Origin: Nitrospiraceae bacterium
GTDB lineage: Bacteria > Nitrospirota > Nitrospiria > Nitrospirales > Nitrospiraceae
Assembly (NCBI GenBank): GCA_050246315.1
Contig: JBFWWG010000001.1
Coordinates: 128,001-192,000 of the forward strand
Direction of reading: 5' to 3'
Length of the DNA stretch: 64,000 nucleotides
The notes beneath the pieces were generated by a model that saw nothing but the letters and a program-made list of their open reading frames with translations, searched no databases and had not been told where the DNA came from. This document shows, piece after piece, positions 6,064 to 35,547 of the stretch; position 1 is the stretch's first letter, and every line of letters starts with the position of its first letter. A program made the translations under genes and the position numbers.

Positions 6064-6546
6064 ATGAAGGTTATCTTGCAAGAAACACTGGAAGGCATTG
6101 GCAATCTCGGCGACGTCCTGGATGTTTCCGACGGGTTTGCGCGCAATTTCTTGTTGCCACGCCGCAAGGCGGTGGAGGCCAGCACCAGGAACGTGAAAGA
6201 GTTCGAGCACGCCAAGCGGGTCGCGGCCGAGCGGGCTCAGAAGGAACGGTTGGAGATCGAAGCCCACGCCAAGAAGATTTCGGCGGTGTCGCTGACGATC
6301 CCGGTCCAAGTCGGCAAGGACGACAAGCTGTTTGGATCGGTCACCAACAAAGACGTTGCCGATGGATTGACCGCCCATGGTTTTACGGTCGATCGCCGGA
6401 AGGTTCAATTGGCCCACCCGATCAAGGAATTGGGCACGCACACGGTGGCAATTAAGCTACCTCGGGATGTCACGGCCACCGTCGCCGTGCACGTCGTGAG
6501 AAAGCAAGAAGAGACCGAACCCGAGGCCGCCCAGGCGGCGTCCTAA
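6064..6546 (+). CDS. rplI: 50S ribosomal protein L9
   Basis: MKVIL...[39 protein letters not shown]. Confidence 0.97.
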
Positions 6547-17636: not shown

Positions 17637-17890
17637 ATGGTCGTTCGACTATTCATGGCACCCTGGCTCCTGTTGTTCAACTCTCTGTCCCTGTGGAACG
17701 AGGACCGAGAGGCCGAGCCAAGCCCGGCGCCGTACAAACTGAACACCATCATCGATTGAGCGATTGCACGCTGCGGGCACACCTTTACTGTGCAGCAACC
17801 GCTGGTGTGGCCGGCCAAGCGGCAGGGGCGAGGAATGCCTCGTCCGTGAGGATGAGCAGGGGGACTGGAAAGCGAGGAGCGCCGTCATGA
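17637..17890 (+). pseudogene. Remnant of a CzcC/TolC outer membrane factor gene
   Basis: Strong AAGGAGG RBS; MVVRLFMAPWLLLF...YKLNTIID*AIAR...TVQQPLVWPAKRQGR; TGA at 17757-17759; an ATGA overlap joins it to czcB. Confidence 0.55.
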
Positions 17891-19071
17891 CCTACGGCAT
17901 CAAAGGGTACAGGTGGAACGTGATCGTCGCGCTCGCGACGCTGATGGTCGGGTGCGGCGAGCGCGAGCCGGAACAATCCACGGCGCCGCCGGAGAACCAA
18001 GCGACCGCGACCAGCGCGATTATCCAGGTCGTCCAACCGCCGGCGGCTGTGCGGGACCGGATACGAACCGAGATGGTCGTCGTCCGAACGGTGCCGGAGA
18101 CGGTCACAGCGCCCGGCGAAGTTTCACTGGACCTGAAGCAGGTCGCCAAAGTGACCTCCAGGATCGACGGACAGGCGGTGCGGGTCTACGCGCAATTGGG
18201 CGATCGCGTCCAGGCCGGACAGCCGCTTGTCGCGATCGGGAGCCTGCAACTGGATCAGTTGGTCGAAGAGTATCTCGTTGCGAAAGCGCAAGCCGACGTG
18301 GCCGAGAATGCCTTCCGGCGAAGCGAGCGGCTCCGGGCGGATCAGATCATCGCCGAACGCCGGTTTGTTGAAGAACGAGGGCGGCACCTGGAAACCAAGG
18401 CGCGGCACCAGCACATCCGCGAGAAGCTCATGAACATGGGCCTGACCGCCCGAGAACTCAAAGAATTGGAGCAGGGGACTCATGAGCAAAGCCATCGCTA
18501 TACCCTCACGGCGCCGATCGCCGGCACCGTGGTGGCGCAGAACGTCGTACTGGGCCAAGGGGTGGCGCCGGGCCTCGAATTGTTCGAGGTGGTGGATACC
18601 AGCCGGGTCTGGGTATTTGCCAACCTGCCGATCGAACAGGCGAGGCGATTCAAGGTCGGAGACCAGGGCACGATCGTGCCCAAGGGCGCCGAGCCGTTGA
18701 TGGCTCCGTTGACCTACCTTTCGCCGGTCGCGGACGAAAAGACCCGCACCATCCGCATCCGCTTAGAGGTGGCGAATCAAGAAGCTCGGCTGAAGCCGCA
18801 AGAATATGTGGACGTTCGCTTGTCCTTCGATGGAGAGCCGGTCCTCGCCGTTCCAGTCGGCGCCGTCACGATGGTGGGCAACAGCCGCGGGCTGTTCGTG
18901 CAGCGGGAACAGGGCTATGACTTTGTTCCCGTACAGACAGGACGTGAAGGAGACGGATGGGTGGAAATCATCCAGGGAGTCGCCCAGGGCGACCGTGTGG
19001 CCAGCGACGGCGTCTTCGATCTGAAGAACGTGCTCCTCAAGGAACATATCGACTCGGGAGAAGAGAGGTAA
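17887..19071 (+). CDS. czcB: CzcB-family RND membrane fusion lipoprotein
   Basis: Lipobox LMVGC, AKVTSRIDG, APIAGTVV, VDTSRVWV, DEKTRT. Confidence 0.87.
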   Translation: MTYGIKGYRWNVIVALATLMVGCGEREPEQSTAPPENQATATSAIIQVVQPPAAVRDRIRTEMVVVRTVPETVTAPGEVSLDLKQVAKVTSRIDGQAVRVYAQLGDRVQAGQPLVAIGSLQLDQLVEEYLVAKAQADVAENAFRRSERLRADQIIAERRFVEERGRHLETKARHQHIREKLMNMGLTARELKELEQGTHEQSHRYTLTAPIAGTVVAQNVVLGQGVAPGLELFEVVDTSRVWVFANLPIEQARRFKVGDQGTIVPKGAEPLMAPLTYLSPVADEKTRTIRIRLEVANQEARLKPQEYVDVRLSFDGEPVLAVPVGAVTMVGNSRGLFVQREQGYDFVPVQTGREGDGWVEIIQGVAQGDRVASDGVFDLKNVLLKEHIDSGEER

Positions 19072-19072
19072 G

Positions 19073-22000
19073 ATGGACCGGTTGCTCGACCTTTCGCTCC
19101 GCTATCGCTTCTTCACCGCCGTGTCGATCCTGCTCGTCATTGCCAGCGGCATCTGGTCCCTCACCCATCTCACCATCGACGCCGTACCGGATCTCACGCC
19201 GGTCCAAGTCCAGGTCCTCTCCAAAGTACCGGCACTCGGTCCGGTGGAAGTTGAACAGTTCGTGACGTTTCCCATCGAGAGTCAACTGAGCGGCCTCCCC
19301 GGACTGCGCGAACTGCGGTCGGTATCCCGCTATGGCCTGTCGGCCGTGACGGCTATCTTCGAGGACCGCACCGATATTTACCGCGCCAGGCAACTGGTGA
19401 GCGAGCGGCTGTCGCGGGCGATCGAACGCATCCCGCCCGAATACGGTCGTCCGATCCTCGGGCCGCTGACGACCGGCCTGGGCGAGGTCTACCAATTCAC
19501 GCTGAAGGGTCCTGGTTACAGCCAGATGGCCTTGCGCACGATATTGGAATGGGACATCGGCATGCGGCTGCGCGCCGTGCCAGGCGTGGTCGAGGTGAAC
19601 ATCTGGGGAGGAGAGACGCAGCAATTCCAGGTCCTGGTCGATCCTGCGAAGTTGCTGGCCTATCGACTGTCTCTCCGGCAGGTCTTCGAGGCGCTGAAAC
19701 GGAACAATGCCATTGCGGGAGGGGGGTATATCGAGCATCTACGTGAACAGGTGCTCATCCGGGGAGAGGCCTTGGCAACGAACGTCACCGACCTGGCGAA
19801 GATCGTGGTGGACCATGGGCCTGGAGGGGTGCCCATCTTTGTGAGGGATGTCGCCGAGGTGAAAGAAGCTCCGGCCCTGCGGATCGGGGCCGCGACGGCG
19901 AATGGTGAGGGCGAGGCGGTCATCGGCATGGTCCAGATGCTCGCGGGCGAGAATGCTCAACAGGTGGTGGAACGTGTGAAGGCGCGGGTCAGAACCATTC
20001 AAGACTCGCTGCCGGCCGGCGTCACCATTGATCCCTATTACGACCGGACCCTGTTCGTTTCGCAAGTCATCCGCACGGTGCGCCACAACCTGCTCGAAGG
20101 CGGTCTCCTCGTCGTCGCCGTCCTCTTTCTGTTTCTGGGAAATCTGCGGGCCGGCCTGATCGTCGCCTCGGCCATTCCGCTCTCGATGCTCCTCGCCTTT
20201 ACCGGCATGGTCCAGGCCGGCCTGTCCGGCAACCTCATGAGCCTCGGGGCGATCGATTTCGGCCTCCTAGTGGATGGATCGGTCGTCATGATCGACAACA
20301 TCCTCCGGCGCTTAGGAGAGAAGCCTCTGAAGACGGCGGAGGAGCGGATTCGCGTGATTCATGAGGCTGGTCGCGAAGTGTTGCGGCCGGTCACGTTTGC
20401 GGTGGGGATTATCATCCTGGTCTATCTGCCGATCCTGAGCCTGACGGGGATCGAAGGCAAGATGTTCCGCCCGATGGCCTGGACGGTCATCCTGGCGCTG
20501 GCTGGCTCGCTGGTGCTCGCTGTCACCGTGACGCCGGTCCTCGCCTCATGGTTTGCACGGAGCACCGGCCGTCACGAAGAGCCGAGGCTGCTGCGTCTGC
20601 TTCGTCTGATCTATGAGCCCTGTTTGGCCTGGTCGCTTGCGCGCCCTCTTCTTGTGACCGGCTTGGCCGTTGCTGTCTTCGCGGCCAGTCTCGTCGTCGG
20701 CGCCACCCTCGGGATTGAGTTCGTCCCACGGTTGGATGAAGGGGACATGGCCGTTCAAGTCTGGCGCCTGCCGAGCGTCTCGCTCACCGAATCAGTGGCC
20801 ACCTCGCTCCAGATCGAACAGGTCCTGCGTCGGTTTCCCGAAGTGGTCCAGGTCGTAACCAGAACGGGCAGCCCAGAGGTCGCCACGGACGTCATGGGCG
20901 TGGAACTGTCCGATGTCTTCGTGATCCTGAAGCCTCGACGAGAATGGACCACGGCCGCCACGCGGGAAGCTTTGATTGCGGCCATGAAGAGCACGTTGGT
21001 CGAGAACGTGCCGGGCATCGGTCTGGGCTTTACGCAGCCGATCGAAATGCGATTCAACGAGTTGATTGCCGGGACACGCTCCGATGTGGCCGTCAAGATC
21101 TTTGGCCAGGACTTAGACACCCTCCGGCAGAAAGCCGAGGCCGTGGCACGCGCGATCGAGACCGTCCGAGGGGCTCAGGACATCAAGATCGAACAAGTCG
21201 CCGGCCTCCCGCTGATGCGCGTCATCATCGACCGCGATCAGATCGCGCGATATGGCCTGACCGCCGACGACGTATTGACGCTGGTTGAAACAACACGCGT
21301 CGGCCGCGTGGTTGGAACGATTGTGCAAGGAGCGCGACGATTCGAGCTGGTCGTGCGGCTGCCGGAAAGCGCCTCCACCGGCCCCGCCCCGTTGGGGACT
21401 CTGCTCATTCCCACCGCGCATGGTGAGTTGGTTCCCCTCTCCCGAGTCGCCGTTATCCGCATGGACAGCGGACCGGCACAAATCAGCCGCGAGGCCGTGC
21501 AACGGCGCATTGTGATCGAATGTAACATCCGTGGGCGCGATCTCGGACGCTTCGTCGCCGAAGCCCAACGCGTGGTCGGGCGGACCGTCGCCTTGCCGAC
21601 CGGCTACTACATGACCTGGGGCGGGCAGTTCGAACATCTGCAAGAGGCCTCGATCAGGCTGGCTTTGGTGGTGCCGGTCACCTTGGCGCTGATCCTGGCC
21701 GTCCTCTCGGTGATCTTCGGGGCCATGAAGCCGGCGTTCCTGATTTTCTTCAATGTTCCGCTGGCGCTCTCCGGCGGTATCCTGGCCTTGGCCCTTCGGG
21801 GTCTCCCGTTCAGTGTTTCTGCCGCGATCGGCTTCATCGCCTTGTTCGGCATTGCCGTGCTCAACGGCGTCGTGTTGGTAAGTCGCATTCGCCAACTGGA
21901 GGCGGAGGGCCATCCTACGGATGAGGCCGTCCGGCAAGGGGCACAGGATCGGCTGCGCCCTGTCCTCATGACCGCCTTGGTCGCAAGTCTTGGCTTTCTC

Positions 22001-22171
22001 CCGATGGCCTTGGCCACGACCATGGGCGCGGAAGTCCAGCGCCCGCTCGCCACCGTCGTGATCGGCGGATTGGCGACCTCGACGATCCTGACACTGCTGA
22101 TCATTCCCGCCCTCTACAAGCGAACGGCAGAACGGAATCAACCGCCCAAGGCGCCATCCGCCCTGGTATGA
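19073..22171 (+). CDS. czcA: CzcA-family heavy-metal RND efflux permease
   Basis: IDAVPDLT, EVEQFVTFPIE, MSLGAIDFG, EFVPRLDEGD, RLRPVLMTA, GAEVQRPLATVVIGG. Confidence 0.93.
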   Translation: MDRLLDLSLRYRFFTAVSILLVIASGIWSLTHLTIDAVPDLTPVQVQVLSKVPALGPVEVEQFVTFPIESQLSGLPGLRELRSVSRYGLSAVTAIFEDRTDIYRARQLVSERLSRAIERIPPEYGRPILGPLTTGLGEVYQFTLKGPGYSQMALRTILEWDIGMRLRAVPGVVEVNIWGGETQQFQVLVDPAKLLAYRLSLRQVFEALKRNNAIAGGGYIEHLREQVLIRGEALATNVTDLAKIVVDHGPGGVPIFVRDVAEVKEAPALRIGAATANGEGEAVIGMVQMLAGENAQQVVERVKARVRTIQDSLPAGVTIDPYYDRTLFVSQVIRTVRHNLLEGGLLVVAVLFLFLGNLRAGLIVASAIPLSMLLAFTGMVQAGLSGNLMSLGAIDFGLLVDGSVVMIDNILRRLGEKPLKTAEERIRVIHEAGREVLRPVTFAVGIIILVYLPILSLTGIEGKMFRPMAWTVILALAGSLVLAVTVTPVLASWFARSTGRHEEPRLLRLLRLIYEPCLAWSLARPLLVTGLAVAVFAASLVVGATLGIEFVPRLDEGDMAVQVWRLPSVSLTESVATSLQIEQVLRRFPEVVQVVTRTGSPEVATDVMGVELSDVFVILKPRREWTTAATREALIAAMKSTLVENVPGIGLGFTQPIEMRFNELIAGTRSDVAVKIFGQDLDTLRQKAEAVARAIETVRGAQDIKIEQVAGLPLMRVIIDRDQIARYGLTADDVLTLVETTRVGRVVGTIVQGARRFELVVRLPESASTGPAPLGTLLIPTAHGELVPLSRVAVIRMDSGPAQISREAVQRRIVIECNIRGRDLGRFVAEAQRVVGRTVALPTGYYMTWGGQFEHLQEASIRLALVVPVTLALILAVLSVIFGAMKPAFLIFFNVPLALSGGILALALRGLPFSVSAAIGFIALFGIAVLNGVVLVSRIRQLEAEGHPTDEAVRQGAQDRLRPVLMTALVASLGFLPMALATTMGAEVQRPLATVVIGGLATSTILTLLIIPALYKRTAERNQPPKAPSALV

Positions 22172-22215: not shown

Positions 22216-22228
22216 TGCAAACTTTGCA
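22216..22228. promoter_or_regulatory. Palindromic putative enhancer site TGCAA-N3-TTGCA (#1)
   Basis: TGCAAACTTTGCA about 100 bp upstream of a -24/-12 site. Confidence 0.65.
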
Positions 22229-22326
22229 TCTCCTTTCCTTTCTGATCATCCCAGCCCCTTTTTGAAGTCTGATCACGCTCACGCAATGTGTTGAAAGTGC
22301 TCGCGACCATCTCGGGATGATGGCCC

Positions 22327-22342
22327 GGGCATGTCTGTTGCT
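22327..22342 (+). promoter_or_regulatory. Putative sigma-54 promoter
   Basis: GGGCATGTCTGTTGCT (GG-N10-GC); IHF-like site with one mismatch at 22284-22296. Confidence 0.6.
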
Positions 22343-22404
22343 CACACTCGTTGCTGAAGATCGTCTCACGGTCACTGAGACGAAATTTTCAGGGATAGCA
22401 AGGG

Positions 22405-22551
22405 ATGAAGCCGCTCACCTGTGCCTGCTGCCATAAGGTATTGACCAGCGCACGGTGGGACAAGAAAACAGAACAATGGTATTGCGTCCAATGCGTCCCG
22501 CCGCTGCCACCGAGTGAGCCGCCAACGGCCAGATCGAGGGCAGTAAGGTAA
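22405..22551 (+). CDS. 48-aa CxxC-x17-CxxC zinc-finger microprotein 1 (not in ORF track)
   Basis: MKPLTCACCHKVLTSARWDKKTEQWYCVQCVPPLPPSEPPTARSRAVR*. Confidence 0.55.
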   Translation: MKPLTCACCHKVLTSARWDKKTEQWYCVQCVPPLPPSEPPTARSRAVR

Positions 22552-22608
22552 GCCGGACGCAACCACCGATGGCCGGAGATCCCATAGTCCAGACTACGAA
22601 GGTACTCA

Positions 22609-22788
22609 ATGAACCTGCCTGAAGCGGCCTCGTTGGAGCCACCTGACAACCCGTGCGAACGCTGCGAGCGTCTCTCGCCTCAACTCTTTTTTGACGGAAC
22701 CAGCCGGCTCCTGCTCTGTCCGCACTGTTTGGAGCACGTGAAACAGGAACAAGCCTGGTCGCTTCTCCGTGACCCGGAAACCGCGTAA
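22609..22788 (+). CDS. 59-aa CxxC-x17-CxxC zinc-finger microprotein 2 (not in ORF track)
   Basis: MNLPEAASLEPPDNPCERCERLSPQLFFDGTSRLLLCPHCLEHVKQEQAWSLLRDPETA*; GAAGG RBS; ends 6 bp before the next ATG. Confidence 0.65.
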   Translation: MNLPEAASLEPPDNPCERCERLSPQLFFDGTSRLLLCPHCLEHVKQEQAWSLLRDPETA

Positions 22789-22794
22789 AGAACC

Positions 22795-23133
22795 ATGGCC
22801 GGAGTGTTTCACCCATTCTCTCAGTCCAATCCCGCCTATCGCGCGCAAATTGACGAAGAGGAGGCCAGACTCTGCCGCCTCATCAGCCGCCATCCGGGCA
22901 GTCGCTCGCTCTCCGCCTATCTGATCTTCCTGCTGGCAGCCAATGACCGTTATGCCGCCGCGATTCGCGAATGCCGGCGAATCCTGAGCCTGTATCCGAA
23001 AGACCCCGTTGCGCTTCTGTGGAAAGAATTGGTTCGGCTGAGATGGCATGAGGCCGCCAGGCGACGGCGCATCCGGCGTCCCGTTCGTCGAGGTCGGCGA
23101 TGGCAGCACGTTTCGCCCGATGCTTGTTCGTAG
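22795..23133 (+). CDS. Small TPR-like protein with Arg-rich tail
   Basis: YLIFLLAANDRYAAAIRECRRILSLYPKDPVA resembles one TPR. Confidence 0.55.
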   Translation: MAGVFHPFSQSNPAYRAQIDEEEARLCRLISRHPGSRSLSAYLIFLLAANDRYAAAIRECRRILSLYPKDPVALLWKELVRLRWHEAARRRRIRRPVRRGRRWQHVSPDACS

Positions 23134-23181
23134 CCGGAATGACGGGCCCGCGCATCTTGAACCAGAGCTGGAGCCATCGGC

Positions 23182-23194
23182 TGCAATCTTTGCA
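23182..23194. promoter_or_regulatory. Palindromic putative enhancer site (#2)
   Basis: TGCAATCTTTGCA about 120 bp upstream of a -24/-12 site. Confidence 0.65.
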
Positions 23195-23313
23195 GACACT
23201 TCCGATACGCACACTCCCGCCCGGCACCCCCGCTTTCATCCCAGTGATTCACGATACCGACAAGGATCGACAACTCAACAACATAGTCCGTCATGGCTCC
23301 GCTTTCATTGGCA

Positions 23314-23329
23314 CGGCATCGGTGTTGCT
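23314..23329 (+). promoter_or_regulatory. Putative sigma-54 promoter
   Basis: CGGCATCGGTGTTGCT (GG-N10-GC), 30 bp before ATG 23359. Confidence 0.6.
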
Positions 23330-23358
23330 TTACCGATGCCGGCAGTGGCGAGGACACG

Positions 23359-23868
23359 ATGCTCAGCGACTGGACTCGTATCGATCTGGCGACGAGATTG
23401 GGCGGGATGAACCGGACGCTCGACCGCCTCGTCGGAAATGAGTCGAGTCGGACGCTGCAGGAAGCCCTCGACGCAGCGATGGGACGAATCGTGCTGGGCG
23501 ATACGAACCAAGCAGCAGCCGTCCTTGAAGCGGCGGTCCAAGCCAATCCGTCCTGGCTCCGTGGATATTTGCTGCTTGCGACCATCTATGAATACGAACA
23601 CAAAGCCGATCTGGCGGCTACCTACATTGAACAGGGCCTGGCCGTCTGTGCCAGGAGTTCGTCCACGCTGCGTTTACAACGTTGGGGCGAGCGAGTCGGT
23701 TCCATTACCGGACCGCTCGCTCGGGATCGCATCATCCAAAACGCCCAGCGCCTGACACGATATGAACGCATCTTCAAACAACGTTTGGCGATGATTCAGA
23801 TCCGGCGTGGCTGTTGGGATGAGGCCTTCGCACAGTGGGAGGCCATCGAAGGAGAGCACGACGCGTAA
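23359..23868 (+). CDS. TPR-containing protein
   Basis: GAGGA RBS; AAAVLEAAVQANPSWLRGYLLLATIY and LAMIQIRRGCWDEAFAQW TPR-like motifs. Confidence 0.7.
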   Translation: MLSDWTRIDLATRLGGMNRTLDRLVGNESSRTLQEALDAAMGRIVLGDTNQAAAVLEAAVQANPSWLRGYLLLATIYEYEHKADLAATYIEQGLAVCARSSSTLRLQRWGERVGSITGPLARDRIIQNAQRLTRYERIFKQRLAMIQIRRGCWDEAFAQWEAIEGEHDA

Positions 23869-23931
23869 CCTCGCACTCGGAGTCGCGAACCACAACACCG
23901 TTGCACAGAGGGCGCCAGGAGACATGAGATC

Positions 23932-24129
23932 ATGACGGACAGTTCACTCGTAGCACAGGATGGCTCACCGACAGGATTCGTCGTTTGCGACCGATGCGCG
24001 CGGCGTTCCCGCGCGCTGGTCTCCGACGAGCTCAGTTCGCAGGAACTTTGTCAGGATTGCTTCACGCAGTTGACTCGCCGCCGTGCCGTCGTCAAACAGC
24101 CGGCCGCCCCCCACAGGTCATGCGGCTAA
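23932..24129 (+). CDS. 65-aa CxxC-x17-CxxC zinc-finger microprotein 3
   Basis: CDRC-ARRSRALVSDELSSQEL-CQDC; GGAG RBS. Confidence 0.6.
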   Translation: MTDSSLVAQDGSPTGFVVCDRCARRSRALVSDELSSQELCQDCFTQLTRRRAVVKQPAAPHRSCG

Positions 24130-24223
24130 CGACGTGACAGGCCTCCGAGCGCATCACTCGCGGACCTTGCATGTGTACAGCCTCGTTCGGGCGTGTTAGC
24201 ATACATACAAGGTCCGACCATCG

Positions 24224-25633
24224 ATGTTTCGGCCTGCTCCGATAGCGACGTTCTTCCGCGGAATTCCCTACAGGCTCATCGCCTCTGTTGTTCTCATCCT
24301 GGCCCTTGTCGTCTCCGTGGTCTTGCTCCTCAGCTTGGAGCACGACAAACTCTTGCTTCAAGGATTCACCGACGGCCACCCTGTCGCTCGTGAAATGTTC
24401 CCCGCTTTGTGGCAGTCGCGTCGCGATTTGATCATGGTCACCGCGCTCCTGTTCCTCGTCAGCGCGATCGGGATCGCGGCGGTCATCACCTGGCTACATT
24501 ACGACAGCACGAGGCGGACTCTGGAAGAGGTGAAAGGGTTGGCCAGGAACATCCTCCAAAGCATTCCGACCGGCATCCTGACGATGAATCACGGCGGAAT
24601 CATCACCGCGGTGAATCCCACAGCCGAGGCGGTGCTGAAGCGCGCCTCGGCCGACTTGCTGGGCAATTCGTATGAAGCGGTGTTTGCGGAGGGGGAGACG
24701 ATCCGAGAGGTCCTCGATGGCGCACTCCGCCGCCATCGGCATGTGAGTCAGAAAGACCTGCCGTACGACGGCGCCGATTATCGAGATCGCACCATCCGCG
24801 TAAGCACAGCCGAACTGACGGGAGACGGCGGGGAACCGACCGGGGTCATCCTACAGGCTCAGGACGTCACAGACTGGCTCGCCTTGGAACAACGCGTGCG
24901 GGTGGCAGAGAAGCTTGCAGCCCTGCATACCCTCTCAGCGGGAGTGGCCCACGAGTTGCGGAATCCCTTGAGCGCTGTGGATTTGAATCTCCACCTATTG
25001 GAAGAAGACCTCCGGGATAGCGGGACATTGAGCGGACAGGGATCCCGGTATCTGCATGTGCTGAATGCCGAATGCCGCCGGCTGTCGGCGATTCTCGACA
25101 ACTTTATGAAGTTTGCCCGTCCAGGGTTGTTGGACTTGCATGAGGTCGACGTGACGGCGCTGATCGAGCATGTCACGACACTGATGCAATTCGAGGCGGA
25201 GGAGCGAAAGGTTCGGCTCGAACTCGATGTGGAGCAGGAAATCCCCCGCGTGATGGGAGATGAAACGGCCATCAGCCAGGTCCTGCTGAACATCGTGGTG
25301 AACGCTCTGCATGCCATGCCGAACGGCGGGCTCTGCCGCATCACCGCGGGAGCACAGGACTCGGTCGGCAAGCGCTGGGTGGCCCTCTCGGTCACGGATA
25401 CCGGAATCGGCATTACGAAACACGAGCTCTCGCGTGTGTTCGAACCGTTCTACACCACCAAGCCCGACGGCACCGGACTCGGTCTCGCGATCGCCTATCG
25501 CATTATGCAGGACCATGGCGGCACCATCCAGGTGTCCAGCGTCCCCGGAAACGGCACCACCGTCGTCATGACCTTCCCCGCGGCATCACGGCATCCCCAA
25601 CCCATTTCCCAACCCGTCCCACTCGTATCATGA
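24224..25633 (+). CDS. Membrane-bound PAS sensor histidine kinase (NtrB/AtoS-like)
   Basis: Two TM segments, PAS (ILQSIPTGIL...VNPTAE), AHELRNPL, NALHAM, DTGIGI, GTGLGL. Confidence 0.93.
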   Translation: MFRPAPIATFFRGIPYRLIASVVLILALVVSVVLLLSLEHDKLLLQGFTDGHPVAREMFPALWQSRRDLIMVTALLFLVSAIGIAAVITWLHYDSTRRTLEEVKGLARNILQSIPTGILTMNHGGIITAVNPTAEAVLKRASADLLGNSYEAVFAEGETIREVLDGALRRHRHVSQKDLPYDGADYRDRTIRVSTAELTGDGGEPTGVILQAQDVTDWLALEQRVRVAEKLAALHTLSAGVAHELRNPLSAVDLNLHLLEEDLRDSGTLSGQGSRYLHVLNAECRRLSAILDNFMKFARPGLLDLHEVDVTALIEHVTTLMQFEAEERKVRLELDVEQEIPRVMGDETAISQVLLNIVVNALHAMPNGGLCRITAGAQDSVGKRWVALSVTDTGIGITKHELSRVFEPFYTTKPDGTGLGLAIAYRIMQDHGGTIQVSSVPGNGTTVVMTFPAASRHPQPISQPVPLVS

Positions 25634-26988
25634 AGCCGGGCGCGCGCATCCTCGTCGTGGACGACGAGGTCAACATTCGTGGGGCGCTGGTGACGATGCT
25701 TGAAAGGAAGGGATACGCGGTACACGGGGTGGGAACCGCGGAAGAGGCGCTGGAGCAGTTGAATACCTCGAATGTGGAATTGGTCATCACCGATCTGAAG
25801 ATGCCCGGTATCGGAGGCATGGCATTCCTTAAACGTCTCAGAGAGCACTGGCCTCAGACAGAAGTCGTGGTGATGACTGCCTACGGATCAATCGACACGG
25901 CCGTCGAAGCGATGCGCGGGGGAGCCTACGATTATCTCACCAAACCCATCGATCGCGAACGATTTCCCGTCGTGGTCGCCAAGGCACTGGAGCGCCAAGC
26001 CCTGGCGAGCGAGAACCGGCAGCTCCGCGACCGTCTCGAAGCGAGAACCCGCTTCGACCAGATGGTGGGCGAGAGCGAGCCCATGCAACGGATCTATACG
26101 CTGGTGGAGATGGTCGCGGACAGCGATGTCACCGTCCTGCTCACCGGCGAAAGCGGAACCGGCAAGGAACTCGTCGCCCGGGCCATTCATCACAAAAGCC
26201 CAAGGGCCGACGGGCCGTTCATCACCATGAACTGTGGCGCGTTACCCGAGAGCCTCTTTGAAAGCGAGTTGTTCGGATACGAGAAAGGCGCATTCACCGG
26301 CGCCGTGACCACCAAGATGGGGCGGTTCGAACTGGCGGACGGCGGCACGTTGCTCCTGGATGAAGTGGGGGAGTTGTCCCTGAAGTCACAGGTTGATTTC
26401 CTGCGCGTCTTGGAAACCAAAGAGTTCAGGCGACTCGGTGGAACCAAACTGATCACGGTGGACACGCGCATCGTGGCCGCCACAAATCGCAATCTTGAAG
26501 AAGCCGTCAAGCAAGGTGGCTTTCGCGAGGACCTCTATTATCGTCTCAATGTGGTGCCGATCCGCCTCCCGCCGCTCCGTGACCGGGCGGACGATATCCC
26601 GTTTCTCATAGAACGATTCCTGGCGGAGTTTTCAGCCCAGCACCATCGTGTTCCAAAAGAGGTGTCACGGGAGGCGATGCGATTGCTGCGGTTCTATGCT
26701 TGGCCCGGGAACATCCGCCAGCTTCGGAACCTCATGGAGCGGTTGGTGGTCACGGTGAAAGACATCATCATCCAACCGGAACATCTGCCCGAGGAGATCC
26801 GAGTCAGCCAGGAGGACGTTCGCACCATGGTGGTGAAGCTCGGGACATCGCTGGAACAAATCGAGCGCGACGTGATCCGGCGGACCTTGGCGGAGGTGAC
26901 CAACCACCGGGAGAAGGCCGCCAAGCTCCTCGGCATCAGCTTGCGGGCCTTGCAGTACAAGATTAAGGAATACGGCATCCGAGACTAG
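25630..26988 (+). CDS. Sigma-54-dependent response regulator (NtrC family)
   Basis: Receiver domain, GESGTGKE, GAFTGA, FREDLYYRLNV, WPGNIRQL, Fis-type HTH. Confidence 0.95.
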   Translation: MKPGARILVVDDEVNIRGALVTMLERKGYAVHGVGTAEEALEQLNTSNVELVITDLKMPGIGGMAFLKRLREHWPQTEVVVMTAYGSIDTAVEAMRGGAYDYLTKPIDRERFPVVVAKALERQALASENRQLRDRLEARTRFDQMVGESEPMQRIYTLVEMVADSDVTVLLTGESGTGKELVARAIHHKSPRADGPFITMNCGALPESLFESELFGYEKGAFTGAVTTKMGRFELADGGTLLLDEVGELSLKSQVDFLRVLETKEFRRLGGTKLITVDTRIVAATNRNLEEAVKQGGFREDLYYRLNVVPIRLPPLRDRADDIPFLIERFLAEFSAQHHRVPKEVSREAMRLLRFYAWPGNIRQLRNLMERLVVTVKDIIIQPEHLPEEIRVSQEDVRTMVVKLGTSLEQIERDVIRRTLAEVTNHREKAAKLLGISLRALQYKIKEYGIRD

Positions 26989-27101
26989 CCCGTTCTTCCG
27001 CCGGCCCTTCTGCCCCTCAATCGATCTTGGAGGTAAACGAGACAGGCTCGCTCGCGCAACAGGGCTTCCAGTTGCGCGCGGGACGCCGTATTTGATCCTG
27101 C

Positions 27102-27158
27102 TGCAAGAATTGCAGTCCGTCCTGTGGGCCGACTCATGAGCCCCATGCAATTCTTGCA
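27102..27158. promoter_or_regulatory. Pair of palindromic putative enhancer sites (#3, #4)
   Basis: TGCAAGAATTGCA (27102-27114) and TGCAATTCTTGCA (27146-27158), starts 44 bp apart. Confidence 0.7.
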
Positions 27159-27264
27159 TGAATCCGATGTGGGGTCGGGGAATTCGATCAGCGGTTCCTG
27201 GCATCGGCTGCACAAGCCCTTCATTTCCTTCAGGCCAGCCCATTACAGTCGCATGTTCATTCTG

Positions 27265-27280
27265 CGGCATCTCCCCTGCA
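27265..27280 (+). promoter_or_regulatory. Putative sigma-54 promoter
   Basis: CGGCATCTCCCCTGCA (GG-N10-GC). Confidence 0.55.
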
Positions 27281-27601: not shown

Positions 27602-27880
27602 ATGGCGAAGCAGATGGACATCGTGATTACGCAGTATCCCAGTGGGACGGCAACCCTGGTCTGGGTTGATCCGACGAGCGGATCGATTGCGACGACTCAT
27701 GCCGGCTTGCAGGCCAGACTGCGCCGGGGATTGAAGGACTGGGCAGGACGGACCGTCATTCCGGAGGAAGGTCGGGCCTTCTTGTCCGCCGTCTACGATT
27801 CCCTCTTTCTGAACGGGTACCCCGTTCGGTGGGTGAAGGTCGTGTCCCTAAGGACGGTCCGGACCATCTACCGTGTGTAG
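27602..27880 (+). CDS. Hypothetical protein (92 aa)
   Basis: ATG abuts the preceding stop; globular alpha/beta-like composition. Confidence 0.55.
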   Translation: MAKQMDIVITQYPSGTATLVWVDPTSGSIATTHAGLQARLRRGLKDWAGRTVIPEEGRAFLSAVYDSLFLNGYPVRWVKVVSLRTVRTIYRV

Positions 27881-27951: not shown

Positions 27952-28152
27952 TTGAAGTATCTCCGCGTCGTTTTCTTGACCCTGGTGACTGGATTCGCCT
28001 GGCCGGCCTGGCTCTCTGAAGCTGTCACTGTGTTGGACGGAGGATCGATCGTCGGCACCGTGACATTGGATGGAGCCGTGCCCAAACCGAATGGCTACAG
28101 CCTGACCACGCTTCCCGATCAGATCGACAACCCGATCGCGATTCTATGTTGA
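27952..28152 (+). pseudogene. Truncated exported protein, N-terminus of a carboxypeptidase-regulatory-like domain protein
   Basis: AAGGAG RBS plus TTG, signal peptide, VTVLDGGSIVGTVTLDGAVPKP..YSLTTLPD, then abrupt end overlapping hyfB. Confidence 0.55.
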
Positions 28153-30170
28153 CACTGTTCGTTCTGCTTCTGGCCGGGTATGCAGCCGGCATCTTCCTTC
28201 CCTTCTGTTTCCCCGCCAATTTCAGAGTCCAGAATGCCGTCGCCCATGGATCAGCCGGGTTGGCAGGAGGAGCGGGCATTCTGCTTGGTATGGTCGGCCT
28301 CCTGGCACCGGAACCCTGGATCGCTTCGGCCGACTCCACCATCCCTTTGTTGACCTTCTCGATCCGGCTTGATCCTCTCGCCTCCTTCTTCCTGCTGACG
28401 ATTTCGGCGGTCGGCCTTTCTTCGTCCGTCTACGCGCGGGGCTACGTGACCGAATGGGAGGGGCGCACCTCCGTCGCGCTCCTCGGCGCCCTCTTCAATG
28501 GGTTTCTCCTCTCCATGATCCTCGTGATCATCGCCGACAACGGGTTCTTCTTCCTGCTCGTCTGGGAACTCATGTCGTTGCTGTCCTATTTCCTCGTCGT
28601 GACCGAACATGAGCGGGCCGAGGTCCGGCATGCCGGCTTCTTTTATCTCATCATGACGCAGGTGGGCACCGCCTTCATCCTCCTGACCTTTCTACTCTTC
28701 TTTCAGCAGACCGGCTCTTTCTCCTTCGAGACCTTTCGTCATCCGGCGGAGCCGCTGTCCTCGGAGCTCAGCACGAGTCTGTTTCTCGCCACCCTGATCG
28801 GATTCGGGGCCAAGGCCGGCATCGTGCCGTTACATGTCTGGCTGCCCTATGCCCATCCGGCAGCACCGTCTCACATCTCGGCCCTGATGTCGGGTGTAAT
28901 GATCAAGACGGCGATGTACGGCCTCATTCGGGTCTATTTCGATTTTCTGAACGCCCAGTTCCTCTGGTGGTGGGGCTTCATCATCCTGGTCGTCGGCGCC
29001 ATCTCGGCCCTGCTGGGTGTGATGTATGCACTCATGGAGCACGATCTGAAAAGACTGTTGGCGTTTCATAGCGTGGAAAACATCGGCATCATCCTGCTCG
29101 GGATCGGCGCGGGCATGATCTTCCGCACCTACGGACTCCATGAGTTTGCGGCCTTGGGCCTCGTGGCCGGGCTTTACCACACGATCAATCACGCGCTGTT
29201 CAAGGCTCTGCTCTTTCTCGGCGCCGGGTCGTTGGGTTACGCCACCCACACCCGCAACATGGAGGACTATGGCGGGCTGCTCCGCCGCATGCCTTGGACC
29301 GGCCTCTTCTTTCTCATCGGCGCCGTCTCGATCGCGGCCCTGCCGCCGACCAATGGCTTTGTCAGCGAATGGCTGATCTTCCAAAGCCTCTTTCTCAGCA
29401 TGCAGGTGCCGAATCTCTTGCTCAAGCTGATGCTGCCGCTGGCCGCGGCCATGCTGGCTCTGACGGGGGTGTTGGCTTTGGCCTGCTTCGCCAAAGCGTT
29501 CGGCATTTCGTTCCTGGCCTTGCCGCGTAGTGGCCACGCGCGGCATGCGGAGGAGGTGCCTCGATCCATGCTGATCGGCATGGGTTTGCTCGCAGCCGCC
29601 TGCGTGGGGCTGGGTCTGTTCCCGATGCTGGTCGTGCCGATCCTGGATCGCGTCACGGCTTCGTTGGTCGGAGTATCACTCGGTGAAAAGGTCCTGGCAC
29701 TCGACGGCTGGGCGCTCGCGCCGGTGAACGTGGCGTTCTCCAGTCTGTCGCCGCCGGCGCTGGCCATGGTCTTGGGCTTGTCCGTCCTGCTCGGACTTGG
29801 ACTGGTTGCGCTATTCGGCGGCCGTCGCGCCGCTCGATACGGCAAAACATGGAACTGCGGCCTCACCCTCTCACCCCGCATGGAATACACCGCGACAGGC
29901 TTCGTGCAGCCGATCAAGCGGATCTTCAGCACCATCTATCAACCGACCGTCAAGCTGGAGACCGAATTCCTGGAGGAATCCCGCTATTTCGCCAAACGCC
30001 GGCGGTTCGAATTTCATATCGAACCGGTATTTGAGAAGTATCTCTATCAACCGGTCGCGGCAGGCTGTCTCAAACTCGCGGATCGGCTGCGCCCGCTTCA
30101 GGCCGGCGGGTTGCATCTGTATCTGACTTACATCTTCGTGACATTGGTGGTCCTGTTGCTGGTCTTGTAG
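28146..30170 (+). CDS. hyfB: Hydrogenase-4/Ehr membrane subunit B (NuoL-like)
   Basis: WELMSL, GAKAGIVPLHVWLPYAHPAAPSHISALMSG, LAFHSVENIG, WNCG...RMEYTATGF. Confidence 0.92.
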   Translation: MLTLFVLLLAGYAAGIFLPFCFPANFRVQNAVAHGSAGLAGGAGILLGMVGLLAPEPWIASADSTIPLLTFSIRLDPLASFFLLTISAVGLSSSVYARGYVTEWEGRTSVALLGALFNGFLLSMILVIIADNGFFFLLVWELMSLLSYFLVVTEHERAEVRHAGFFYLIMTQVGTAFILLTFLLFFQQTGSFSFETFRHPAEPLSSELSTSLFLATLIGFGAKAGIVPLHVWLPYAHPAAPSHISALMSGVMIKTAMYGLIRVYFDFLNAQFLWWWGFIILVVGAISALLGVMYALMEHDLKRLLAFHSVENIGIILLGIGAGMIFRTYGLHEFAALGLVAGLYHTINHALFKALLFLGAGSLGYATHTRNMEDYGGLLRRMPWTGLFFLIGAVSIAALPPTNGFVSEWLIFQSLFLSMQVPNLLLKLMLPLAAAMLALTGVLALACFAKAFGISFLALPRSGHARHAEEVPRSMLIGMGLLAAACVGLGLFPMLVVPILDRVTASLVGVSLGEKVLALDGWALAPVNVAFSSLSPPALAMVLGLSVLLGLGLVALFGGRRAARYGKTWNCGLTLSPRMEYTATGFVQPIKRIFSTIYQPTVKLETEFLEESRYFAKRRRFEFHIEPVFEKYLYQPVAAGCLKLADRLRPLQAGGLHLYLTYIFVTLVVLLLVL

Positions 30171-30186
30171 CAATGTCCTTCCGACC

Positions 30187-31149
30187 ATGAGCCTGATCTT
30201 TCTTCAAGCCGTCTTCTTCACCCTGGCGCATGCAGCCCTGATGCTGTCGATCGCGCCGTTGATCGTGGGCCTGATTCGCAAAGTGAAAGCGCGCCTCCAA
30301 TGTCGGCGAGGGGCGTCGATCGTCCAGCCCTATGCAGACCTGGCCAAGCTCTTCCGGAAACAGCCGGTCGTTTCCTCGACGACCTCGTGGATCTTCACCA
30401 CAGCTCCTTATATCTTCTTTGCCTCGACCTTGACCGCTGGCTTGCTGGTGCCGGTCTTCTTTTCCCAGATGCCGCTCAATTTTGCCGGCAACATCATCGC
30501 GCTCGTGTATCTGCTGGCGCTTGGCACGTTTTCCTTGATCTTGGCGGGACTCGACGCCGGGTCGGCATTCGGTGGGATGGGAAGCAGCCGAGAGGCCATC
30601 GTGGCCTCCCTGACCGAGCCGGCTCTGATACTGTCGATCTTTGCCATCGCGCTCACGGCTGGCTCGACCAACCTCAGCACCATCGTCCATAAGACCGCCT
30701 TATTGGAAGGGATTGTCATGGCCCCGTCGCCACACCTGATGGCGCTGGCCGCCTTGTTCATCGTGGCGCTGGCAGAAACCGGGCGTGTCCCGGTCGACAA
30801 TCCGGCCACGCACCTCGAACTGACCATGATCCACGAGGCGATGGTCCTGGAATATTCCGGACGCTACCTGGCGCTGATCGAGTGGGGAGCCGGCCTCAAA
30901 CTGGTCGTGTTCCTGACCCTGATCGCTAATGTGTTCGCTCCCTGGGGCATTGCGACCGTCCCGACGCCGGCTGCCCTTGCAGTCGGACTGGCCGTGTACC
31001 TCGTGAAGATCACGGGTCTCGCGGTACTGATCGGCGTGATCGAATGCATGTTCGCCAAGTTGCGGTTGTTTCGTGTCACGGATCTGCTCGGCGTCGCCTT
31101 CATCCTGGCGCTTCTCAGCCTGCTCTTCTTCTACATCCTGCGAGCCTGA
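30187..31149 (+). CDS. hyfC: Hydrogenase-4/Ehr subunit C (NuoH-like)
   Basis: RKVKARLQCRRG, FGGMGSSRE, ETGRVPVDNPATHLELTMIHEAMVLEYSG. Confidence 0.92.
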   Translation: MSLIFLQAVFFTLAHAALMLSIAPLIVGLIRKVKARLQCRRGASIVQPYADLAKLFRKQPVVSSTTSWIFTTAPYIFFASTLTAGLLVPVFFSQMPLNFAGNIIALVYLLALGTFSLILAGLDAGSAFGGMGSSREAIVASLTEPALILSIFAIALTAGSTNLSTIVHKTALLEGIVMAPSPHLMALAALFIVALAETGRVPVDNPATHLELTMIHEAMVLEYSGRYLALIEWGAGLKLVVFLTLIANVFAPWGIATVPTPAALAVGLAVYLVKITGLAVLIGVIECMFAKLRLFRVTDLLGVAFILALLSLLFFYILRA

Positions 31150-31151
31150 CC

Positions 31152-31820
31152 ATGTTCACCCTATCGCCTCACATCGGTTCTCACCTCGTGGACCTGGGAT
31201 CGGCGCTGCTTCTCCTGACCTGTTTCGCGATCGTGGCCCAGCGGCGCCTCTCCGCCTGCGTGGATCTCTTCGCATTGCAATCTCTCTTTCTTGCGATGAC
31301 CGCGGCGTTGGTCGCCTTCCTGACAGGCATCCGGCATATCTATTTTGCGGCAGCCCTGACGGTGCTCATCAAGGTGATCGTCATCCCCTCCGTCCTGAAA
31401 CGGGTGATCGAACGCCTCAACGTGACCCGTGAACTGGTCATGAACATCAACGTGCCGGCCAGCCTGCTGATCTCCGGCTCCCTGGTGATGGTCGCGTTCT
31501 TCATCACCCAGCCGATCATCCCGTTCGGGTACCTGTTGACGCGCGATTCGCTGGCCATCGCGCTGGCGATCGTCCTCATCGGTTTCTTCACGATGATCGC
31601 CCGGCAGAAGGCTGTCACGCAGTTGATCGCCTTCTTGGTGATGGAGAATGGACTGTTTCTGGGAGCGACGGCCGCCACCTATGGCATGCCATTGATCGTA
31701 GAGCTGGGTGTGTTTTTTGACGTCTTGGTGGCGGCACTGATCGCCGGAATCTATACCAACCGCCTGCAAGACGCGTTCGACAGCGTGGATACCAACCATC
31801 TCAGCGAGCTGAAAGAATGA
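31152..31820 (+). CDS. hyfE: Hydrogenase-4/Ehr subunit E
   Basis: FLVMENG, YGMPLIVELGVFFDV. Confidence 0.9.
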   Translation: MFTLSPHIGSHLVDLGSALLLLTCFAIVAQRRLSACVDLFALQSLFLAMTAALVAFLTGIRHIYFAAALTVLIKVIVIPSVLKRVIERLNVTRELVMNINVPASLLISGSLVMVAFFITQPIIPFGYLLTRDSLAIALAIVLIGFFTMIARQKAVTQLIAFLVMENGLFLGATAATYGMPLIVELGVFFDVLVAALIAGIYTNRLQDAFDSVDTNHLSELKE

Positions 31821-34935: not shown

Positions 34936-35034
34936 GAACATGAGCGGACAATCCCTGGAGGCGTATTGTCCGGCCGCCAAGAGCCATTTTGAGAGTAGGC
35001 CGGTTCACCCGAAGGTTGGTATGGAGGACGTTGT

Positions 35035-35547
35035 ATGTTCCGCATTCTCAAGAAGAGTCTCAAAACCGGCATCGTGACCGGCGAGCATCCTCCCGCCTGC
35101 ACCTCTTCTGAACCGCCGAGCCAGGAGGCGAAGGCTAAAGCAACCCCGTTTTGCCGGTCGCTCTCGATTCGCGAGGTCGATACCGGCTCCTGCAATGCCT
35201 GCGAGATGGAGATGAACGCGCTCATGAATCCGGTCTACGATGCAGAGCGATTCGGCATCCATATCGCGGCCTCGCCTCGCCATGCCGACGCCCTGGTCAT
35301 CACAGGGCCGGTAACCGTGAACATGGCGAAACCGCTCAAGGATGTGTACAAACAAACCCCCGATCCTAAGGTCGTGATCGCGCTGGGCGACTGCGCCATC
35401 ACCTGCGGCGTCTTTGCCGGCAGCTATGCTGTCATCGGCCCTGTCGATCGCCATATCCCCGTCGATGTCCGCATCGCCGGCTGTCCGCCAAAGCCGACTG
35501 ACATTCTTGAAGCTCTGGCGCAGCTAAGGACACCTCAGAGGGGTTGA
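35035..35547 (+). CDS. hyfI: HyfI/NuoB-like small Fe-S subunit
   Basis: GSCNACE, ASPRHAD, LGDCA, GCPP. Confidence 0.92.
   Translation: MFRILKKSLKTGIVTGEHPPACTSSEPPSQEAKAKATPFCRSLSIREVDTGSCNACEMEMNALMNPVYDAERFGIHIAASPRHADALVITGPVTVNMAKPLKDVYKQTPDPKVVIALGDCAITCGVFAGSYAVIGPVDRHIPVDVRIAGCPPKPTDILEALAQLRTPQRG

Follow-up and report, generated by a model that had tools for sequence, protein, structure and literature searches.

The question raised by this locus is whether three very short open reading frames (ORFs) are genes and, if they are, what their products do. They lie in a 64,000-nucleotide stretch of the genome of a Nitrospiraceae bacterium (GenBank assembly GCA_050246315.1, contig JBFWWG010000001.1, positions 128,001 to 192,000 of the forward strand), referred to here as the window, and encode proteins of 48, 59 and 65 residues (ZF-A, ZF-B and ZF-C) that each carry the zinc-finger pattern CxxC-x17-CxxC. 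A first-pass annotation made from the sequence had described them as a diversified family of paralogous zinc-finger microproteins, interleaved with genes for tetratricopeptide repeat (TPR) proteins, and had proposed that they act as adaptors, as redox or metal switches or as partners of the TPR proteins. The analysis presented here establishes the three ORFs as conserved genes that accompany a sensor kinase and an NtrC-type regulator, and leads us to propose tentatively, with somewhat less than even confidence, that the ZF proteins are small zinc-ribbon accessory regulators of a self-inducing sigma-54 two-component circuit and act partly through the TPR proteins.

The ZF ORFs are conserved genes

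All three ORFs were found on the forward strand with the coordinates and peptides originally assigned to them (Table 1). Each has the CxxC-x17-CxxC pattern with an aspartate at spacer position 10 and a hydrophobic residue, tyrosine in ZF-A and leucine in both ZF-B and ZF-C, before the second CxxC, and two TPR ORFs sit between the ZF ORFs, as the first-pass annotation had reported. The number of residues ahead of the first cysteine, read from the sequence, is 5 in ZF-A, 15 in ZF-B and 18 in ZF-C. The core of ZF-C reads C-D-R-C-A-R-R-S...F-D-D-L-S...L-C-x-x-C and its tail is Lys/Pro-rich, with a nearly invariant L-x-R-R-R.

The window DNA is ∼60% G+C with abundant long spurious ORFs on both strands, and two of the three ZF genes appear to be unannotated in this genome; an exact-sequence look-up returned ZF-B under NCBI, ZF-C under Logan/ENA only and no entry for the 48-residue ZF-A, which agrees with the first-pass remark that the ORF track had missed two of the three. 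These circumstances would favour a reading of the ORFs as chance frames in GC-rich DNA, which the motif statistics, the sequence conservation between genera, including the fixed starts and stops, the substitution ratios, the promoters and the RNA-library coverage described below refute as far as computation goes; we regard its probability as negligible. In a six-frame translation of the whole 4,385,457-bp genome, CxxC-x17-CxxC occurs 17 times. Only three of the 17 matches, ZF-A, ZF-B and ZF-C themselves, have aspartate at spacer position 10, and the ZF locus is the sole place in the genome where two or more matches fall within 2 kb. The pattern at this locus is far beyond chance.

Related loci were collected with the 191-residue TPR ORF located between ZF-B and ZF-C as bait, which matched 13 of 41 related genomes. 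In every one of the nine non-self loci inspected (L011–L019) the TPR gene has a ZF-C-type ORF behind it, with a ZF-B-type ORF in six of the nine and a ZF-A-type ORF in the three same-genus loci. A scan of one genome per species gave a set of 19 loci from Nitrospiraceae, Nitrospira or Nitrospirota metagenome-assembled genomes (MAGs), which partly duplicates the genomes behind the nine loci and in which two loci end at contig edges. In tblastn searches with the window proteins, ZF-A was matched in 11 and ZF-B in 15 of these 19 loci. Among orthologues from several genera the distance from the start codon to the first cysteine is 15 residues in ZF-B and mostly 16–18 in ZF-C, and the tail after the last cysteine comprises 19 residues in most orthologues and 17–19 in ZF-B. 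An AGGAG-like site precedes ZF-C. In one locus (L026, ∼6100–6200) the ZF-B frame seems to be frameshifted in the MAG, which may reflect a sequencing error or decay.

The ratio of nonsynonymous to synonymous substitution rates (dN/dS) was estimated by the Nei-Gojobori method over 35 codons without gaps in pairs of 0.1<dS<2, drawn from loci picked by motif rules. The median is 0.26 for ZF-A (30 pairs), 0.18 for ZF-B (37 pairs) and 0.155 for ZF-C (119 pairs), which indicates purifying selection on all three. The cysteine pattern and the frame, whose loss in homologous loci the first-pass annotation had named, together with a missing translation signal, as refuting its claim, are kept across genera, with dN/dS medians of 0.16–0.26. 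The region is also represented in RNA libraries, with 20 of 23 listed runs (nine studies) holding part of it. Among contigs from four runs of four studies, one of 2363 nt is identical to the window, spans positions 22463–24824 and covers ZF-C, while others span 22248–22588, covering all of ZF-A, and 22600–22943; ZF-B is likewise spanned by contigs. ZF-A, ZF-B and ZF-C are real, conserved genes.

An unnamed family of small paralogues

The paralogy claimed for the three proteins is visible with profiles and not with single sequences. Searches of the window genome with each ZF protein as a single query gave no further paralogues and no mutual matches (E≤10). In a profile comparison with hhalign, ZF-C (10 sequences) matched ZF-B (7 sequences) with a probability of 96.8% (E 2.2e-10), and in several loci ZF-B and ZF-C also cross-match by tblastn; on these comparisons the two are homologous paralogues. 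ZF-A reached only 17–21% when represented by four near-identical sequences. A set of 12 diverse ZF-A sequences reached 76.6% (E 2.1e-5) against an 81-sequence ZF-B/C alignment, with the four cysteines and the aspartate in register, and a database ORF of 121 residues (P0125) contains a ZF-A-like and then a ZF-C-like finger in tandem. ZF-A is probably a divergent family member, and the original claim of paralogy holds for ZF-B and ZF-C and is probable for ZF-A. One related locus has two extra ZF paralogues downstream of ZF-C (L038, 8273–8600) and five fingers in total.

The description of the proteins as a diversified zinc-finger microprotein family was well founded, the cysteine pattern, frame, start offset and C-terminal length all being kept across genera. 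Three cysteines are invariant in the 81-sequence alignment and Cys22 is conserved in at least 90% of its members; all four are invariant in a 21-sequence alignment of the three groups. A profile search of 1.84 billion representatives yielded 63 proteins at E≤1e-3, 18 of them at E≤1e-10, and a word-indexed search of 5.8 billion proteins with ZF-C yielded 127 clusters at E≤0.01. The best 120 of these 127 clusters are all unnamed or 'hypothetical' and have no Pfam domain, one being labelled Nitrospirota, and the ESM Atlas contributed 'hypothetical protein' clusters only. In the exhaustive search of representatives of any length, the ZF domain was never seen fused to a TPR, a kinase or any other named domain; the longer matches were the ZF-A-like plus ZF-C-like ORF, a two-finger protein, apparently mis-called ORFs and Lys/Asn-rich tandem-repeat proteins. 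The tandem CxxC-x17-CxxC repeat proteins are picked up by the ZF-B/C profile at E∼1e-7. Four Lys/Asn-rich proteins (P0146, P0149, P0156 and P0174) contain 3–4 tandem CxxC-x17-CxxC units, each unit followed by Y-x-Y-E-x-x-H-G, and these repeats may be GATA-type fingers.

Within the phylum, at least 21 of 401 genomes were matched, namely the window genome (G000) itself, 17 of the 75 other members of its family, 2 of 40 genomes from a second family and the only genome of a third. In a set of 151 genomes from the own family, at least 37 have ZF matches. These genome counts are lower bounds, as not every first-look candidate was scored (up to 42 per genome in the set of 151).

Predicted fold and comparison with known zinc fingers

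No Pfam or NCBIfam model matched any of the three ZF proteins above its cut-off, and up to 30 of the 81 family members gave weak, sub-threshold matches to DZR_2, Zn_ribbon_6 and similar models. An AlphaFold2 model of ZF-C based on 10 sequences was poor (predicted local distance difference test, pLDDT, of 56) and the prediction was redone with 81 sequences, giving a mean pLDDT of 71.7, with 86–89 over residues 20–50. This model has short beta-hairpins at both CxxC knuckles and a single, C-terminal helix (residues 41–55), and residues 1–14 are predicted to be disordered (pLDDT <50). Foldseek found no match in the PDB at E≤1e-3. The best match in a wide VIA-align search was the Lsr2 dimerisation domain (Z 4.0), the others being generic zinc fingers (B-box, GATA, ZAD, ClpX ZBD, CsfB and FYVE), and a PDB profile search gave nothing significant, with ribosomal uS14 the best match (E 0.012). 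The ZF proteins are modelled as a C4 domain of zinc-ribbon or treble-clef-like type that belongs to no named family.

The spacing of the cysteines equals that of the C4 zinc finger of DksA/TraR, as the first-pass annotation had pointed out, and the ZF proteins could on this basis be DksA/TraR-like factors in the secondary channel of RNA polymerase. They share with TraR its small size and with both proteins a bacterial regulatory context, and the PDB profile matches include a TraR chain (5w1s_M), at E 2.6. However, DksA/TraR proteins insert the acidic tip of an N-terminal coiled coil into the RNA polymerase channel, and the ZF proteins have neither coil nor tip, in agreement with the earlier description: few residues precede the first cysteine and the one predicted helix is C-terminal. 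None of the three matches the DksA/TraR hidden Markov model (HMM; PF01258) at E≤10, a comparison that had been suggested at the outset. Run against the six-frame translation of the genome, PF01258 gave no match at the ZF locus (C1:150405-152126) and two matches above the cut-off at other loci (C1:69415-69519 and C5:190233-190337), so true DksA/TraR-type genes are encoded elsewhere in the genome. A DksA/TraR-like function is disfavoured and very improbable.

A second comparison is with GATA fingers, to which the notation CX2CX17CX2C belongs in the portion of the literature accessible to search. The ZF proteins resemble them in the four cysteines, the 17-residue loop and the predicted helix after the finger, and ZF-C also in its basic residues. 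The ZF-C model superposes weakly on GATA1 (3vd6_C; Z 3.1, root-mean-square deviation (rmsd) 2.4, 36 aligned residues), AreA (2vus_I; Z 2.9) and AtGATA18 (8j48_A; Z 2.8), all within the range of the generic matches. None of the three proteins matches the GATA HMM (PF00320) at E≤10, and GATA is absent from the best 25 of 59 families for the 81 members. GATA fingers bind DNA as domains within large eukaryotic proteins; the ZF proteins are stand-alone bacterial proteins of 48–65 residues.

These likenesses bear on the possibility that the ZF proteins, above all ZF-C, are nucleic-acid-binding second-tier regulators that are induced by the two-component system and then bind DNA or RNA elsewhere. Such a role would suit the nearly invariant L-x-R-R-R on the helix after the second CxxC, the Lys/Pro-rich tail, the superposition on GATA fingers (35–36 residues, rmsd 2.1–2.4, Z only 2.8–3.1) and the reach of the ZF-B/C profile to tandem-repeat proteins, and the first transcription unit of the locus, with only ZF-A, ZF-B and a TPR gene, is composed as a unit of outputs might be. 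However, a basic tail is no trait of the family, as that of ZF-B is acidic and that of ZF-A proline-rich. There is also no GATA or other DNA-binding Pfam match, the structural scores are those of common arrangements and no candidate target sites are known. We consider a nucleic-acid-binding role unlikely.

One palindrome precedes three sigma-54-type promoters

The first-pass annotation described the three ORFs correctly but gave no account of the wiring of the locus. The closest link of the ZF genes is to a PAS kinase and an NtrC-type activator encoded downstream, and it runs through palindromes and promoters. Three -24/-12 elements (P1–P3, Table 1) define the architecture of the locus. P1 stands before ZF-A, ZF-B and the TPR gene TPR112, P2 before the TPR gene TPR169, ZF-C, the kinase and the regulator, and P3 downstream of the regulator gene. 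The strict form GGCA[CT]-N5-TTGC occurs only twice on both strands of the 64-kb window, at P1 (22328) and P2 (23315). Alignment of the promoter-upstream regions across loci exposed a palindrome, TGCAA-N3-TTGCA, ∼110–130 bp above the P1 and P2 elements. Its exact form occurs eight times in the 4.39-Mb genome, and four of these sites are in this locus, 112–164 bp upstream of a -24/-12 element. In the related loci, regular expressions for the pair of palindrome (upstream activating sequence, UAS) and promoter were matched at P1 in 15 of 19, at P2 in 14 of 19 and at P3 in 11 of 19; where the pair was not matched, the sequence ends early or only one half of the pair matches.

A scan of the window with a looser sigma-54 consensus gave 23 matches compared with a shuffle mean of 26.6, and hence no enrichment; the weight of the promoter assignment therefore rests on position and conservation. 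The genome contains rpoN (C5:258483-258965). As read from the sequence, the elements of a sigma-54 system are all present, namely canonically spaced -24 GG and -12 GC motifs, an upstream palindrome, an adjacent gene for a putative bacterial enhancer-binding protein and rpoN.

A fifth palindrome lies outside the locus, at G000:C7:212046 (L048), with the sequence TGCAAGTCTTGCA (TGCAAGACTTGCA on the gene's strand) and a -24/-12-like element 46 nt downstream. The gene downstream of it encodes a formate/nitrite transporter (PF01226, E 4e-61). This palindrome is spaced differently from those at P1–P3, and the site could be a member of the regulon or a chance occurrence.

The ZF genes accompany a kinase and an NtrC-type regulator

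The nearest NCBIfam models are AtoS and ZraS for the kinase and AtoC and NtrC for the regulator, all of them below cut-off. By tblastn the kinase follows ZF-C in 17 of the 19 loci, and the regulator was matched in 16. In the set of 151 family genomes an orthologue of the N-terminal 119 residues of the kinase was found in 59. All 37 ZF-positive genomes are also kinase-positive and the 92 kinase-negative genomes yielded no ZF match, although these counts come from related, non-independent genomes and no statistical weight is claimed for them. Where ZF-C is on the kinase contig it is located directly upstream or ∼2 kb upstream of the kinase gene. The ∼2 kb gap is seen in many family genomes, and in three loci a gene for a fused ATP-binding cassette (ABC) transporter of ∼560 residues lies between ZF-C and the kinase (L026, 7329–9017; L027, 6324–8003; L040, 7294–8970).

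ZF-C, the kinase and the regulator are constant while the downstream genes vary between genera. HyfB is found downstream in 3 of the 19 loci, and at least five others have a PF02552 (CO_dh-like) gene instead. This association bears on the possibility that the ZF and TPR proteins are not regulators but adaptors in the assembly or chaperoning of the energy-converting complexes whose genes lie behind P3. Small TPR proteins often serve as assembly factors; in this genus a hyf-like, complex-I-like operon follows the cassette, and a third small TPR gene and a gene for a 92-residue protein head the P3 operon. However, the variation of the downstream genes beside a constant ZF-C, kinase and regulator argues against such a role, as does the position of the ZF genes upstream of or within the regulator operon and outside the structural operon. 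An assembly role therefore seems improbable. The PF02552 genes (CO dehydrogenase beta/acetyl-CoA synthase (ACS) epsilon-like, 229–233 residues) follow the regulator in L026, L031, L034, L040 and L041, and in the window genome members of this family are located elsewhere, on C7 and C16.

Small TPR proteins of the cassette

In tblastn searches TPR112 was found in 14 and TPR169 in 15 of the 19 loci. The second of these was originally listed as the 191-residue ORF used here as bait. Since P2 lies inside this ORF and the orthologues align from its residues 17–23, the gene most likely begins at ATG 23359 and encodes 169 residues. The C-terminus of TPR112 (23050–23133) is Arg-rich, and its orthologues keep this tail in kind and not in exact sequence.

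TPR169 and ZF-C were co-folded in the presence of Zn. The interaction prediction score from aligned errors (ipSAE) was 0.47 (runs 0.49, 0.47 and 0.45) compared with 0.01 for the best of three controls, with a contact agreement between runs of at least 78% and a partner pLDDT of at least 65. The mark applied to such co-folds is attained in 116 of the 157 solved complexes and in 2 of the 215 mismatched pairs, and passes at ipSAE≤0.60 include only 18 of the 157 solved complexes and both passing mismatches, so that the result weakly suggests a pairing of TPR169 with ZF-C. The first-pass proposal that the ZF proteins are partners of the TPR proteins is to this extent weakly supported for one pair. 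A ZF-TPR pair is not obligate, however, because ZF-C persists without TPR169 in 4 of the 19 loci and one locus lacks both TPR genes.

A proposed self-inducing circuit

We propose the following arrangement. ZF-A, ZF-B and ZF-C would constitute one unnamed family of single-domain zinc-ribbon (treble-clef-like) proteins confined to Nitrospiraceae and transcribed from P1 and P2, and the co-encoded kinase and regulator would activate P1, P2 and P3. The same palindrome precedes each of the three promoters, and a single kinase/regulator pair driving all of them is the most economical assumption. If the regulator binds the palindrome and drives P1–P3, the ZF and TPR proteins would be products of an autoregulated circuit. 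The circuit would induce its own expression together with that of the ZF and TPR proteins and of an output operon that varies, being hyf-like here and CO_dh-like elsewhere. The ZF proteins would bind other proteins and exert feedback on either the kinase or the AAA+ activator, in part as complexes with the small TPR proteins encoded nearby.

An accessory regulatory role is favoured for four reasons. The association of the ZF genes is with the kinase and regulator and with no structural operon. The tails of the proteins are member-specific and constrained in length, being acidic in ZF-B, marked by a PPLP motif in ZF-A and forming a predicted basic helix in ZF-C. Third, the ZF proteins are accompanied by small TPR proteins, a class of peptide-binding modules. 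Finally, the TPR169/ZF-C co-fold gave a weak pass.

Several observations weigh against this proposal. The unit transcribed from P1 comprises only ZF-A, ZF-B and TPR112, which suits output effectors as well as feedback modulators. Binding of the palindrome by the regulator is proposed from adjacency, zinc binding is assumed from the four cysteines, and none of the fold matches assigns an activity to the ZF proteins. The partnership with TPR proteins is incomplete: the loci that keep ZF-C and in which TPR169 was not found are L026, L027, L040 and L041, TPR112 is missing in L025, and in L040 ZF-B is followed directly by ZF-C with neither TPR gene. One locus (L038) has ZF-A, ZF-B, ZF-C and the two extra paralogues but lacks a kinase or regulator gene in the 7 kb downstream. 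A ZF match is absent from 22 of the 59 kinase-positive genomes, so the kinase can exist without ZF proteins, although some of the 22 have weak, partial kinase matches and up to 42 candidates per genome were scored. The RNA data are assembled contigs, which record presence only and carry no strand, start, ends, level or translation.

A related possibility gives the small proteins a larger part. The three ZF and three TPR proteins may themselves be the main products of the regulon, a control layer, of a kind not described so far for NtrC-type two-component systems, in which exchangeable partner-switching ZF-TPR complexes would by feedback set the activity of the kinase or AAA+ activator and so gate energy modules of Nitrospira. 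The modules would be the hyf-like 'group 4 hydrogenase' complex, the CO_dh-like gene product and possibly the formate/nitrite transporter. We regard this more extensive arrangement as rather unlikely.

The metal or redox switch envisaged by the first-pass annotation would have the four cysteines act as a zinc or thiol switch by which the ZF proteins pass a signal to the kinase. The four cysteines are invariant or nearly so and a CzcB/CzcA-type heavy-metal pump of the resistance-nodulation-division (RND) type is encoded directly upstream of the cassette; in addition, the periplasmic loop of the kinase appears from the sequence to be short and its PAS domain to be cytoplasmic, with which an accessory sensor is plausible. 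However, the pump is adjacent in same-genus loci only (L024 and L025), other genera having unrelated upstream genes, and CxxC-x17-CxxC knuckles are typical structural zinc sites. The pump was set aside as a functional clue because this neighbourhood is genus-specific, and a switch of this kind is a doubtful explanation with little probability.

The proposed feedback by accessory ZF proteins has precedents in logic only. The gene hycA is the first gene of the FhlA-dependent sigma-54 operon (PMC4987338) and HycA is described as a repressor of formate hydrogenlyase (FHL) (PMC8487115), while PspA controls PspF as an anti-activator (PMC4987338), as far as the accessible parts of these articles state. 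As in these systems, small proteins are encoded behind sigma-54 promoters near the activator, and here they also lie upstream of a hyf-like operon. The three ZF proteins differ in having no HycA (HycA_repressor) or PspA Pfam match at E≤10, and the activator in the present locus is a phosphorylation-controlled response regulator. By analogy with HycA and PspA, the ZF proteins might act as anti-activators.

Features of the locus

The coordinates of the features discussed are collected in Table 1. The genes between 27311 and 28152, ahead of the hyf-like operon, include an ORF of 66 residues with a hydrophobic N-terminus. A reverse-strand ORF of 79 residues (26985–27224) contains the pattern CxxC-x14-CxxC and has 65% and 61% identity to its counterparts in L024 and L025, respectively. 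It was considered as a fourth finger gene and rejected, as it overlaps the enhancer palindromes of P3 and is found in same-genus loci only; it is probably not a gene.

Table 1. Genes, promoter elements and palindromes at the ZF locus (positions in the window)
Feature	Position	Strand	Remarks
CzcB/CzcA-type heavy-metal RND pump	17764-22171		directly upstream of cassette
UAS-1, TGCAA-N3-TTGCA	22216..22228	+	112 bp upstream of P1
P1, -24/-12 element GGCAT-N5-TTGC	22328..22341	+	64 nt before ZF-A start
ZF-A, predicted 48-aa zinc-ribbon microprotein	22405..22551	+	spacer with WD; PPLP motif after second CxxC
ZF-B, predicted 59-aa zinc-ribbon microprotein	22609..22788	+	LEPPD motif before Cys1; acidic C-terminal tail
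TPR112	22795..23133	+	TPR_14 E 1.8e-5, above cut-off; start 7 nt after ZF-B stop
UAS-2, TGCAA-N3-TTGCA	23182..23194	+	133 bp upstream of P2
P2, -24/-12 element GGCAT-N5-TTGC	23315..23328	+	inside 191-aa TPR ORF, before 23359
TPR169 (most likely start)	23359..23868	+	listed as 191-aa ORF 23293-23868; TPR_14 E 1e-3, below cut-off
ZF-C, predicted 65-aa zinc-ribbon microprotein	23932..24129	+	basic helix L-x-R-R-R after second CxxC
Sensor histidine kinase	24224..25633	+	two transmembrane segments, PAS, HisKA, HATPase_c (Pfam)
NtrC-type sigma-54-dependent response regulator	25630..26988	+	REC, AAA+ sigma-54 interaction (Sigma54_activat), HTH_8 (Pfam)
UAS-3a, TGCAA-N3-TTGCA	27102-27114	+	after regulator gene
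UAS-3b, TGCAA-N3-TTGCA	27146-27158	+	after regulator gene
P3, -24/-12 element GGCAT-N5-CTGC	27266-27279	+	downstream of regulator gene
Third small TPR gene, 96 aa	27311-27601	+	TPR_17 E 2e-6; behind P3; 15/19 loci (tblastn)
92-aa gene, no family	27602-27880	+	behind P3; 6/19 loci (tblastn)
hyf-like, complex-I-like gene set	28146-35547		downstream of regulator, behind P3

Relation to known systems and significance

Two-component systems that act through sigma-54 are textbook knowledge, and the kinase and regulator of the window have the same domain order as the NtrC, AtoSC and ZraSR systems, with -24/-12 promoters and a palindrome ∼110–130 bp upstream. They differ in falling below every equivalog cut-off, and the system is thus unnamed. 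We know of no three zinc-ribbon and three small TPR genes inside the regulon of the textbook NtrC, AtoSC or ZraSR systems.

Described counterparts of the ZF proteins are found in archaea. According to the accessible part of the published account, Methanosarcina mazei has paralogous one-domain CxxC-x17-CxxC proteins of <70 residues, two of which bound zinc as determined by inductively coupled plasma mass spectrometry (ICP-MS), and these proteins are without an assigned function (PMC12704099). The likeness, which is one of description and not of sequence comparison, lies in the paralogous, small, single-domain character of the proteins and their equal cysteine spacing. The M. mazei set differs in being archaeal and dispersed, and no tie to a two-component or sigma-54 system is mentioned in that part of the account (PMC12704099). 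Papers on Nitrospira genomes, in the parts accessible, note the hyf-like complex as of unknown role and mention the hyf-like operon and 'FhlA'-type regulators, and not the ZF genes (PMC12542776, PMC5596200). A literature search of article texts accessible in part, exclusive of supplementary files, found no publication describing this bacterial ZF family or its three-promoter regulon.

The family definition provided by the two alignments (A7 and A8) can be used for annotation, as can the corrected start of the TPR gene, and the ZF proteins add a bacterial example to a growing class of zinc-finger microproteins overlooked by annotation pipelines. Nitrite oxidation in wastewater treatment and soils is mainly the work of Nitrospira, and to our knowledge almost nothing is known of gene regulation in these bacteria. 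The locus offers for these organisms a testable circuit, in which an enhancer palindrome, three putative sigma-54 promoters, one kinase/regulator pair and six small proteins would operate together.

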